Assembly (NCBI RefSeq): GCF_054482525.1
Contig: NZ_CM137006.1
Strand: one strand, 5' to 3'
Length of the DNA: 64,000 nt
The translations under genes and the position numbers were made by a program. The notes beneath the pieces were generated by a model that saw only the letters and a program-made list of their open reading frames with translations, was not told where the DNA came from and ran no database searches. Below are positions 28,178-47,641 of the stretch, one piece after another (positions within the stretch are counted from its first letter, which is position 1; each line of letters opens with the position of its first letter).

Positions 28178-29341
28178 ATGTCTGTAATTAAGATGACCGA
28201 TCTGGATCTTGCTGGGAAACGTGTATTTATCCGTGCGGATCTGAACGTACCAGTAAAAGACGGGAAAGTAACCAGCGACGCGCGTATCCGTGCTTCTCTG
28301 CCGACCATCGAACTGGCCCTGAAACAAGGCGCAAAAGTGATGGTAACTTCCCACCTGGGTCGTCCTACCGAAGGCGAGTACAACGAAGAATTCTCTCTGC
28401 TGCCGGTTGTTAACTACCTGAAAGACAAACTGTCTAACCCGGTTCGTTTGGTTAAAGATTACCTCGACGGCGTTGACGTTGCTGAAGGTGAACTGGTTGT
28501 TCTGGAAAACGTTCGCTTCAACAAAGGCGAGAAGAAAGACGACGAAACTCTGTCCAAAAAATACGCTGCACTGTGTGACGTGTTCGTAATGGACGCATTC
28601 GGTACTGCTCACCGCGCGCAGGCTTCTACTCACGGTATCGGTAAATTTGCTGATGTTGCGTGCGCAGGTCCGCTGCTGGCAGCTGAACTGGACGCGCTGG
28701 GTAAAGCACTGAAAGAACCTGCTCGCCCGATGGTGGCTATCGTTGGTGGTTCTAAAGTATCTACCAAACTGACCGTTCTGGACTCCTTGTCTAAAATCGC
28801 TGACCAGCTGATTGTTGGTGGTGGTATCGCTAACACCTTTATCGCGGCACAAGGCCACGATGTGGGTAAATCTCTGTACGAAGCTGACCTGGTTGACGAA
28901 GCTAAACGTCTGCTGACCACCTGCAACATCCCGGTTCCGTCTGATGTTCGCGTAGCAACCGAGTTCTCTGAAACTGCACCGGCTACCCTGAAATCTGTTA
29001 ACGATGTGAAAGCTGACGAGCAGATCCTGGATATCGGTGATGCTTCCGCTCAGGAACTGGCTGAAATCCTGAAGAATGCGAAAACCATTCTGTGGAACGG
29101 TCCGGTTGGCGTGTTCGAATTCCCGAACTTCCGCAAAGGTACTGAAATCGTGGCTAACGCTATCGCAGACAGCGAAGCGTTCTCCATCGCTGGCGGCGGC
29201 GACACTCTGGCAGCAATCGACCTGTTCGGCATTGCTGACAAAATCTCCTACATCTCCACTGGCGGCGGCGCATTCCTCGAATTCGTGGAAGGTAAAGTAC
29301 TGCCTGCAGTAGCGATGCTCGAAGAGCGCGCTAAGAAGTAA
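28178..29341 (+). CDS. pgk: Phosphoglycerate kinase Pgk, 387 aa
   Basis: Start [25 protein letters not shown] at ATG 28178 with GAGAGGA RBS. Confidence 0.95.
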
Positions 29342-29350
29342 AAAATCACA

Positions 29351-29374
29351 GGGCAGGGAAACCTGCCCTTGTTT
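29351..29374 (+). terminator. Putative partial terminator/attenuator between pgk and fbaA
   Basis: GGGCAGG-GAAA-CCTGCCC stem followed by TTGTTT. Confidence 0.4.
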
Positions 29375-29414
29375 CAGCGCGCTTTTAAAGCACGCACTTT
29401 TTCATACTCTAAAT

Positions 29415-29545
29415 AATTCGAGTTGCAGGAAGGCGACAAGAGAGTGAATCCCCAGGAGCTTACATAAGTAATTGACTGGGGTGAGCGAACGCAGACGCAG
29501 CACATGCAACTTGAAGTATGACGAGTATAAGGCCCGACGATACAG
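29415..29545. repeat. ERIC (IRU) enterobacterial repetitive intergenic consensus element
   Basis: Contains GTGAATCCCCAGGAGCTTACAT and AAGTAATTGACTGGGGTGAGCG, i.e. the ERIC1R/ERIC2 primer-site cores. Confidence 0.65.
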
Positions 29546-29555
29546 GACAAGAGAC

Positions 29556-30635
29556 ATGTCTAAGATTTTTGATTTCGTAAAACCTGGCGTAATCACTGGT
29601 GATGACGTACAGAAAGTTTTCCAGGTAGCAAAAGAAAACAACTTCGCACTGCCAGCAGTAAACTGCGTCGGTACTGACTCCATCAACGCCGTACTGGAAA
29701 CTGCTGCTAAAGTTAAAGCACCGGTTATCGTTCAGTTCTCCAACGGTGGTGCTTCCTTTATCGCTGGTAAAGGCGTGAAATCTGATGTTCCGCAGGGCGC
29801 TGCTATCCTGGGCGCGATCTCTGGTGCGCATCACGTTCACCAGATGGCTGAACATTATGGTGTTCCGGTTATCCTGCACACCGACCACTGCGCGAAGAAA
29901 CTGCTGCCGTGGATCGACGGTCTGCTGGACGCGGGTGAAAAACACTTTGCAGCTACCGGTAAGCCGCTGTTCTCTTCTCACATGATCGACCTGTCTGAAG
30001 AATCTCTGCAAGAGAACATCGAAATCTGCTCTAAATACCTGGAGCGCATGTCCAAAATCGGCATGACTCTGGAAATCGAACTGGGTTGCACCGGTGGTGA
30101 AGAAGACGGCGTGGACAACAGCCACATGGACGCTTCTGCACTGTACACCCAGCCGGAAGACGTTGATTACGCATACACTGAGCTGAGCAAAATCAGCCCG
30201 CGTTTCACCATCGCAGCGTCCTTCGGTAACGTACACGGTGTTTACAAGCCGGGTAACGTGGTTCTGACTCCGACCATCCTGCGTGATTCTCAGGAATATG
30301 TTTCTAAGAAACACAACCTGCCGCACAACAGCCTGAACTTCGTATTCCACGGTGGTTCCGGTTCTACTGCTCAGGAAATCAAAGACTCCGTAAGCTACGG
30401 CGTAGTGAAAATGAACATCGATACCGATACCCAATGGGCAACCTGGGAAGGCGTTCTGAACTACTACAAAGCGAACGAAGCTTATCTGCAGGGTCAGCTG
30501 GGTAACCCGAAAGGCGAAGATCAGCCGAACAAGAAATACTACGATCCGCGCGTATGGCTGCGTGCCGGTCAGACTTCGATGATCGCTCGTCTGGAAAAAG
30601 CATTCCAGGAACTGAACGCGATCGACGTTCTGTAA
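29556..30635 (+). CDS. fbaA: Class II fructose-bisphosphate aldolase FbaA, 359 aa
   Basis: Start MSKIFDFVKPGVITGDD at ATG 29556. Confidence 0.95.
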   Translation: MSKIFDFVKPGVITGDDVQKVFQVAKENNFALPAVNCVGTDSINAVLETAAKVKAPVIVQFSNGGASFIAGKGVKSDVPQGAAILGAISGAHHVHQMAEHYGVPVILHTDHCAKKLLPWIDGLLDAGEKHFAATGKPLFSSHMIDLSEESLQENIEICSKYLERMSKIGMTLEIELGCTGGEEDGVDNSHMDASALYTQPEDVDYAYTELSKISPRFTIAASFGNVHGVYKPGNVVLTPTILRDSQEYVSKKHNLPHNSLNFVFHGGSGSTAQEIKDSVSYGVVKMNIDTDTQWATWEGVLNYYKANEAYLQGQLGNPKGEDQPNKKYYDPRVWLRAGQTSMIARLEKAFQELNAIDVL

Positions 30636-46624: not shown

Positions 46625-46770
46625 GCTGTAACGGTAAAGCCCTCACCGAAGCGAGGGCTTAAAGGAGAAGGGTTATGATGCGACTTGTCATCATACTGAT
46701 TGTACTGTTACTCATAAGTTTGCCAGCTTATTAACAGTCAGTCACAGGGGAGGAGTAATCCTCCCTTACC
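46625..46770 (-). ncRNA. sibC: SibC antisense sRNA (antitoxin of ibsC); boundaries approximate
   Basis: Inferred from the ibsC ORF on the opposite strand, flanking hairpins and the K-12 fau-serA sib locus; ends not determinable from sequence alone. Confidence 0.4.
46675..46734 (+). CDS. ibsC: Type I toxin IbsC-like hydrophobic peptide, 19 aa
   Basis: AAGGAGAAG RBS; MMRLVIILIVLLLISLPAY closely resembles the Ibs toxin family. Confidence 0.6.
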   Translation: MMRLVIILIVLLLISLPAY

Positions 46771-46834
46771 CTTACTCACTAAATTAGGTTAAAGAATCAA
46801 CGATGTCAATCAGGGCGATGCAGGTGTGTCGCCC

Positions 46835-47455: not shown

Positions 47456-47641
47456 AGGGAATCTCCGAGATGCCGCCGCAGGCTGTAACCCTTGAACCCT
47501 TGGTTCAAGGTGAATGTGTCGTCGCAGTTTTAAGGCTTCTCGGACGGACCGAGCATGCTCACCAACCGCGGAGCGCCACATTCTTGTGGTATGAAATATC
47601 GGCTCAGGGGACTGGCCCGCTTGCGAACATCTCAGAGAAAT
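47456..47641 (-). ncRNA. ssrS: 6S RNA
   Basis: Reverse complement matches recalled 6S RNA (5' AUUUCUCUGAGAUGUUCGCAAGCGGGCC ... GGCAUCUCGGAGAUUCCCU 3'). Confidence 0.85.

Follow-up and report, generated by a model that had tools for sequence, protein, structure and literature searches.

A complete, fixed ERIC/IRU element in the pgk-fbaA spacer of Escherichia coli

What occupies the spacer between pgk and fbaA in Escherichia coli, and does it influence the expression of these two neighbouring glycolytic genes? On the plus strand of the stretch of DNA analysed here (64,000 nucleotides, referred to as the window), the genes epd, pgk and fbaA follow one another in the order of the E. coli epd-pgk-fbaA operon. 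The open reading frame 5′ of pgk encodes erythrose-4-phosphate dehydrogenase (epd). The upstream cistron of the pair, pgk (phosphoglycerate kinase, 387 aa; 28178-29341, +), is laid out identically to its K-12 counterpart, and the downstream cistron, fbaA (class II fructose-bisphosphate aldolase; 29556-30635, +), was assigned using model NF006628 (657 bits) and the K-12 annotation. The gene layout matches b2927-b2925 of K-12 MG1655, including the 214-bp pgk-fbaA spacer (29342-29555, corresponding to 3071245-3071458 in MG1655), within which the RefSeq record annotates no feature. In one complete E. coli genome the spacer is 100% identical to that of the window; the identity with K-12 is 98.6%. 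According to the original prediction, the spacer contains an ERIC element located just after a weak terminator hairpin, and elements of this kind can modulate mRNA stability and the pgk:fbaA expression ratio.

Identity and limits of the element

ERIC/IRU repeats were reportedly described in 1990-91, by Sharples and Lloyd in 1990 and by Hulton et al. in 1991. The ERIC/IRU/RU-1 repeats of Enterobacteriaceae and Vibrionaceae have been reviewed (PMC2229807, PMC3184786, PMC10969869). A covariance model was built from a MAFFT alignment of 11 ERIC copies, and it matched the window at 29403-29529 (+) over positions 1-127 of 127 with a score of 127 bits; this was the only ERIC copy that the model detected in the 64-kb window. 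The conserved central core was located using the 44-nt ERIC1R/ERIC2 primer-site core as query, which was independently confirmed as the consensus of the 11-copy alignment. The query matched 43 of 44 positions at 29444-29487 (+), a segment that contains both primer sites and forms the apical stems of the element, and none of 100 shuffles was matched.

Independent copies were sought by blastn in 80 FbaA-anchored loci from other species. Full-length matches (query 2-127) were found at loci unrelated to pgk-fbaA in seven other genera, with identities of 64-82%: Brenneria (82%), Hafnia (78%), Yersinia (77% and 79%), Kluyvera (76%), Photorhabdus (68%), Enterobacter (67%) and Vibrio (64%). The mean column identity of the ERIC alignment was 79%. 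Agreement with the family is thus good beyond the primer-site cores and extends over the full length of independent copies, which is where the original prediction would have been most exposed.

The window copy begins CATACTC and ends GAGTATA. Among the ten other aligned copies, nine start with TA, mostly as TATAC(C/A)C, and GTATA is found at the end of all but two of the aligned copies. The right TA target duplication lies at 29528-29529 (+), as indicated by the alignment and by comparison with empty sites. The left duplication at 29403-29404 (+) is now CA, the window copy reading CATAC where other copies read TATAC.

The covariance model, full-length blastn matches, alignment and RNA fold confirm that the pgk-fbaA spacer holds one complete ERIC/IRU element, with the transcribed strand in the consensus orientation. 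It shares with the family a length of 127 bp, the core, full-length similarity, terminal inverted repeats that close a hairpin, TA ends, an extragenic but transcribed position and the presence of several dispersed copies per genome; used as a query, the spacer matched up to 10 places in an E. coli genome, the median being 5. Nothing essential separates this copy from the family: its first base is C rather than T, it carries T at position 29472, and it is fixed and gives no sign of mobility. The original prediction is therefore borne out as to the presence of the element between pgk and fbaA. The range that it gave, 29415-29545, found the right place with the wrong ends, since it omits the first 12 bp (the left terminal repeat) and adds 16 bp of unique fbaA leader; the limits set by the covariance model are 29403-29529.

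A second E. coli ERIC copy, a 55-bp short form, was observed in the yehK-yehL spacer (locus L085 1480-1534, plasmid pNJS001-2). The sequence named pNJS001-2 is a 438-kb E. coli 'plasmid' that carries the normally chromosomal yehI-yehK-yehL genes.

The ERIC family as such is not present in Rfam. Only two Rfam families scored above threshold in the window, 6S RNA (ssrS; 47458-47641, -; 140 bits) and Sib antitoxin RNA (46659-46809, -; 138 bits), and no tRNA genes were found in the 64 kb. Literature searches for a link between ERIC and pgk, fbaA or fda gave no relevant result. The pgk-fbaA ERIC is nevertheless already known in kind, and this instance is almost certainly known too, because a near-consensus copy is present in K-12.

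The RNA hairpin and its setting in the transcript

Folded as plus-strand RNA, the element formed a single long, imperfect hairpin (-42.4 kcal/mol, z = -5.6), and none of 200 shuffles folded as well. The consensus structure of the family has 36 pairs arranged in six helices, and compensatory double changes were observed in 20 of the 36 pairs. Helix 1 is formed by the left terminal inverted repeat (29404-29409, +), which pairs with 29523-29528 (93.9% of cells paired, compensatory changes in 3 of 6 pairs). Helix 2 has as its left arm 29417-29429 (+), which pairs with 29503-29515 to form the long lower stem (compensatory changes in 7 of 13 pairs); it consists of 13 pairs in the family consensus, and the lower stem of the window copy has 11 contiguous pairs. 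Paired cells made up 90.6% in the MAFFT alignment, compared with 34-38% when the partners were slid, and none of 500 shuffles reached any of the five pairing measures that were observed.

The structure is also oriented. In all 11 copies the consensus orientation folded better than its reverse complement; the advantage was 1.8 to 23 kcal/mol and is due to several G-U pairs. In the window element the transcribed strand has the consensus orientation and is the more stable of the two (-42.4 kcal/mol, versus -36.5 kcal/mol on the other strand).

The sole core mismatch in the window is T29472, where the majority base is G. It lies inside the ERIC2 primer site and breaks a C-G pair of the apical stem, at a cost of 6.5 kcal/mol (-42.4 versus -48.9 kcal/mol). 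T29472 is a minor allele that is absent from K-12, which differs from the window by three substitutions at this ERIC locus and otherwise has the same sequence, and it is also absent from all 56 of the metagenome copies considered below. In approximately 100 complete genomes the spacer shares at least 99% identity with that of the window.

Previously, 5′RACE aimed at this 214-nt spacer revealed no start site, and Olvera et al. concluded that fbaA relies on upstream promoters (PMC2759082). A scan of 29200-29700 likewise detected no sigma-70-like promoter on either strand. One candidate, TATAAG at 29526-29531, was checked manually and rejected, having no usable -35 sequence. Because no start site was found in the spacer (PMC2759082), fbaA is expected to be transcribed from the epd and pgk promoters through the element. 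The element would be carried in the pgk-fbaA and epd-pgk-fbaA mRNAs in its more stable consensus orientation, where it is predicted to fold into a long imperfect hairpin of approximately 36 pairs.

Upstream of the element, the original prediction was correct about position but not about number, as two hairpins and not one lie between pgk and the repeat. The first, pgk-proximal hairpin (29348-29372, +; -17.1 kcal/mol) has a G+C-rich stem and a weak U-tract (UGUUUC), and is likely to be a leaky terminator or a 3′ stabiliser. It is kept, with compensatory stem changes, in the spacers of Citrobacter, Kluyvera, Enterobacter and Klebsiella. In the scan the same segment qualified as a canonical intrinsic terminator on the minus strand alone (tail GTGATTTTTT), although no minus-strand gene leads into it. 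The second, smaller hairpin (29377-29395) is followed by the U-run ACUUUUU at 29396-29402 (29377-29402 in all, +; -8.2 kcal/mol), and it too is found in other genera, in spacers with an empty site. The ERIC inserted at the 3′ edge of this U-run, and the element begins immediately after it. Downstream, the sequence reads as a unique fbaA leader of 26 nt (29530-29555, +), with the Shine-Dalgarno sequence AGGA at 29544-29547 and a motif, GGCC..GA.GATACAGGAC, that is conserved across genera. The element is thus separated from the upstream pgk stop codon by 61 nt and from the downstream fbaA Shine-Dalgarno sequence by 14 nt.

A very stable hairpin placed directly 3′ of two terminator-like hairpins might be thought to act as a partial terminator or pause site that reduces read-through from pgk into fbaA. 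However, the ERIC hairpin is followed by AAGGCCCGACG and lacks a U-tract, and for this reason it does not qualify as an intrinsic terminator; the scan of 29200-29700 also detected no plus-strand terminator in or after the element. Strong termination is implausible on a further ground, because FbaA is abundant and no fbaA promoter lies in the spacer (PMC2759082). We consider a terminator or pause site very unlikely.

Even less probable is that the element constitutes an independent small or antisense RNA gene, comparable to the Vibrio RNA AS5 of Rfam. RF02818 (V_AS5) did match at 29402-29521 (+) with 37.1 bits (E = 1.2e-5), and it can be aligned over the whole element with the same hairpin layout. 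Nevertheless, this score falls well short of the gathering score of 96, and the window copy is therefore not a member of the family. Moreover, a Vibrio fluminensis ERIC copy at an unrelated locus (L056 14956-15079, -) also matches V_AS5, with 52 bits, and the match is for that reason best read as shared repeat ancestry and not as a gene. RF02818 itself seems to describe a Vibrio branch of the ERIC family rather than a distinct RNA gene. The lack of a promoter-like site on either strand in the scanned interval and the weaker antisense fold also speak against a small RNA.

Occupancy of the insertion site

The original prediction called for a comparison of this spacer among E. coli strains for presence or absence of the element. 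No such polymorphism emerged. Among complete E. coli genomes, 5417 of 5426 contained at least 80% of the spacer at 95-100% identity and with it the full element; of the other nine, eight had a match with less than 80% coverage and one had no match. All metagenome stretches that contained the whole spacer (56 of 56) carried the full element within 214-216 bp, in 19 alleles that are a few substitutions apart. Variable sites were similarly dense inside the element (approximately 10 in 127 positions) and in the rest of the spacer (approximately 5 in 87) in this small sample, in keeping with weak constraint on the element. When the deleted spacer of E. albertii (see below) was used as a query, the best 25 E. 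coli hits were all in two pieces and spanned 213-214 bp; since a one-piece deletion allele would outrank these hits, none is evident among the complete genomes. In the metagenome collection, the empty-site pattern with Escherichia flanks gave 0 matches, compared with 71 for the filled right junction. The element is therefore fixed in E. coli and not polymorphic for presence or absence.

These counts bear directly on the suggestion that the element is still mobile and hence variably present among strains. ERICs are classed as MITEs that duplicate TA, and extra copies have been noted in some non-K-12 strains (PMC10969869). For the pgk-fbaA copy, however, the filled site in 5417 of 5426 complete genomes, the lack of an evident deletion allele among them, the lack of an empty allele in the metagenomes and the decay of the left TA to CA leave us with practically no confidence in continued mobility.

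Outside E. coli the site is usually empty. Across 55 loci with pgk ahead of fbaA, the spacer typically measures 55-160 bp and holds no ERIC, and an empty site was found in more than 20 other genera. Among close relatives, Citrobacter werkmanii, Pseudocitrobacter, Kluyvera, Enterobacter, Pluralibacter and Klebsiella have spacers of 87-109 bp, and at the place of the E. coli element these read ...CTTTTC-TA-ACGGCCGAAGATACAGGAC or a close variant of it. A single TA or close variant occupies the site in spacers of 66-110 bp (C. werkmanii, Pseudocitrobacter, Kluyvera, Enterobacter, Klebsiella and others). In Enterobacter and Pseudocitrobacter the reading is ...TTTTC-TA-ACGGCC..., with a single TA. 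Judged from these sequences, the empty sites fit an insertion at TA with duplication of the target, the left TA of E. coli having since changed to CA.

In E. albertii an intermediate arrangement was found. All three assemblies (3 of 3) have a 142-bp spacer from which the central 72 bp are gone and in which both ends of the element are kept, leaving a 55-bp remnant. This short form is predicted to fold into a small hairpin of -13 kcal/mol (L073 9920-9974; L157 and L158, spacers 559-700), and it has the same size (55 bp) and shape as the short ERIC of the E. coli yehK-yehL spacer. Because E. albertii retains both element ends, the insertion predates the split between E. coli and E. albertii. The dating reaches no further than 'before this split', the 80 loci being without Salmonella, Shigella, E. 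fergusonii and the cryptic Escherichia clades.

The same TA is also filled in two other lineages, in both cases in the orientation found in E. coli: Citrobacter sp. FP75 carries an ERIC (L003 9848-9974), and the soil MAG CTSoil_132 carries a diverged ERIC-like element (L013 9848-9973). The FP75 copy is 80% identical to an unrelated Kluyvera copy and 75% identical to the E. coli copy. As the latter value is, by eye, close to the identity of the flanks, divergence alone does not decide between orthology and independent insertion. Given the many empty genera, independent gains would be the more parsimonious explanation for the FP75 and MAG copies.

In the same set of loci, Acinetobacter pollinis and A. 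boissieri (L024 and L025) were observed to encode an FbaA with 87-88% identity to that of E. coli and to lack a pgk gene ahead of it. These observations suggest that these nectar-associated Acinetobacter may have acquired an enterobacterial-type fbaA horizontally.

Probable role and significance

We consider it likely that a complete, immobile ERIC inserted at TA in the ancestor of E. coli and E. albertii, that it is now fixed, and that its likeliest effect is that of a passive structured spacer, close to neutral. Lacking a U-tract after its hairpin, the element is not a terminator. Given its distances from the pgk stop codon (61 nt) and from the fbaA Shine-Dalgarno sequence (14 nt), it should be left folded by ribosomes on either cistron.

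A precedent for such a passive contribution is provided by the REP/BIME sequences of E. coli, which are said to form intercistronic hairpins that shield upstream mRNA from 3′ exonucleases, in work attributed to Higgins et al. in 1982 and Newbury et al. in 1987. REPs are approximately 35 bp and G+C-rich, and they move by means of a REP-associated tyrosine transposase (RAYT). Both would act in the same way, as a stable stem-loop between cistrons of a polycistronic mRNA; the sequence families are unrelated, and REPs, unlike the ERIC element, are not 127 bp long and are without terminal inverted repeats and a TA duplication. Like a REP hairpin, the ERIC hairpin could slow 3′-to-5′ exonucleases following a downstream cleavage and so give mild protection to the pgk segment. 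Overall, its effect on the pgk:fbaA ratio would probably be small and close to neutral.

The principal rival to a passive spacer is a co-opted regulatory RNA, in which processing by RNase E in the right-hand repeat, or by RNase III in the long stem, uncouples the mRNA levels of pgk and fbaA and sets their ratio. This idea draws on Yersinia enterocolitica, in which, according to the accounts of De Gregorio et al. 2005 given in PMC2229807 and PMC10969869, 'B-oriented' ERICs adjacent to a stop codon lower the level of the upstream transcript via an RNase E site. In the mechanism as presented there, translating ribosomes prevent folding of the ERIC and thereby unmask the RNase E site in the right-hand repeat, and this holds for ERICs that overlap or abut the stop codon (PMC2229807, PMC10969869). 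The remark in the original prediction about mRNA stability and the pgk:fbaA ratio is a fair generic statement about ERICs that goes back to this Yersinia work (PMC2229807, PMC10969869). As far as those accounts extend, the pgk-fbaA element resembles the Yersinia regulatory ERICs in belonging to the same family and in being co-transcribed between two genes, but differs from them in its position, 61 nt beyond the stop codon and behind two hairpins. It neither overlaps nor adjoins the stop codon and hence falls outside the Yersinia stop-codon-adjacent class; with this gap and the two hairpins, the unmasking route is not expected to operate here.

Cleavage by RNase III has its own precedent in the Correia/NEMIS elements of Neisseria, which are MITE hairpins cut by this enzyme (PMC10969869). 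Both kinds of element are MITEs co-transcribed with flanking genes, and both form a long duplex that is a candidate RNase III substrate. They differ in family and host, and cleavage by RNase III, established for Correia/NEMIS, would be no more than a possibility for ERIC RNA.

Several observations agree with a regulatory RNA beyond the Yersinia precedent itself. The element is co-transcribed and fixed in E. coli, its stable hairpin has 11 contiguous pairs in the lower stem, and Citrobacter sp. FP75 and a soil MAG also carry an element at this TA. Full fixation across E. coli is what would also be expected under selection for function, and the same-TA elements in the two other lineages point the same way. 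Regarding orientation, examination of the open reading frames next to nine other ERIC copies identified two stop-codon-adjacent copies, in Brenneria (L059) and Kluyvera (L005), that share the orientation of the window element; nine copies are too few for a firm rule. On the other side, the central 72 bp have been lost in E. albertii, the stem-breaking allele T29472 is tolerated, being carried by about 100 complete genomes, and the same operon is without any element in most related genera; taken from sequence comparison, the loss of the centre, the tolerated allele and the many element-free genera argue against a strong requirement for the hairpin. For this operon, reported RNase E sites fall in the epd-pgk part and not in the pgk-fbaA spacer, and the spacer was not mentioned in the published RNase III and RNase E maps that were searched. 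Considering both sides, we regard a regulatory RNA as unlikely, although it is the alternative to which we attach the most weight.

A related and slightly more tentative proposal is that the pgk-fbaA TA is a site of repeatedly favoured ERIC insertion; if the insertions were independent and selected, the hairpin would have been recruited convergently to tune the stoichiometry of pgk and fbaA and would not be a passenger. We hold this to be a doubtful speculation.

We thus retain the passive, near-neutral spacer as the preferred reading. Its near neutrality is something that we infer, because the compensatory changes across the family and the strand bias of the G-U pairs suggest that the hairpin matters to the element or to its transcripts.

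The pgk-fbaA ERIC is an ordinary feature of a kind already described, in one of the best-studied operons of E. coli K-12, and as such it is of little consequence. ERIC-PCR typing is based on ERIC elements. Because this copy is fixed in the species, it should provide a constant and not a variable priming site in ERIC-PCR patterns, and the T29472 allele is of note for typing as it falls inside the ERIC2 primer site. For those who engineer or model the operon, it is useful to know that all fbaA transcription passes a hairpin of -42 to -49 kcal/mol. Finally, the E. albertii remnant and the empty sites of relatives could act as natural controls for any effect of an ERIC on the ratio of two neighbouring glycolytic enzymes.
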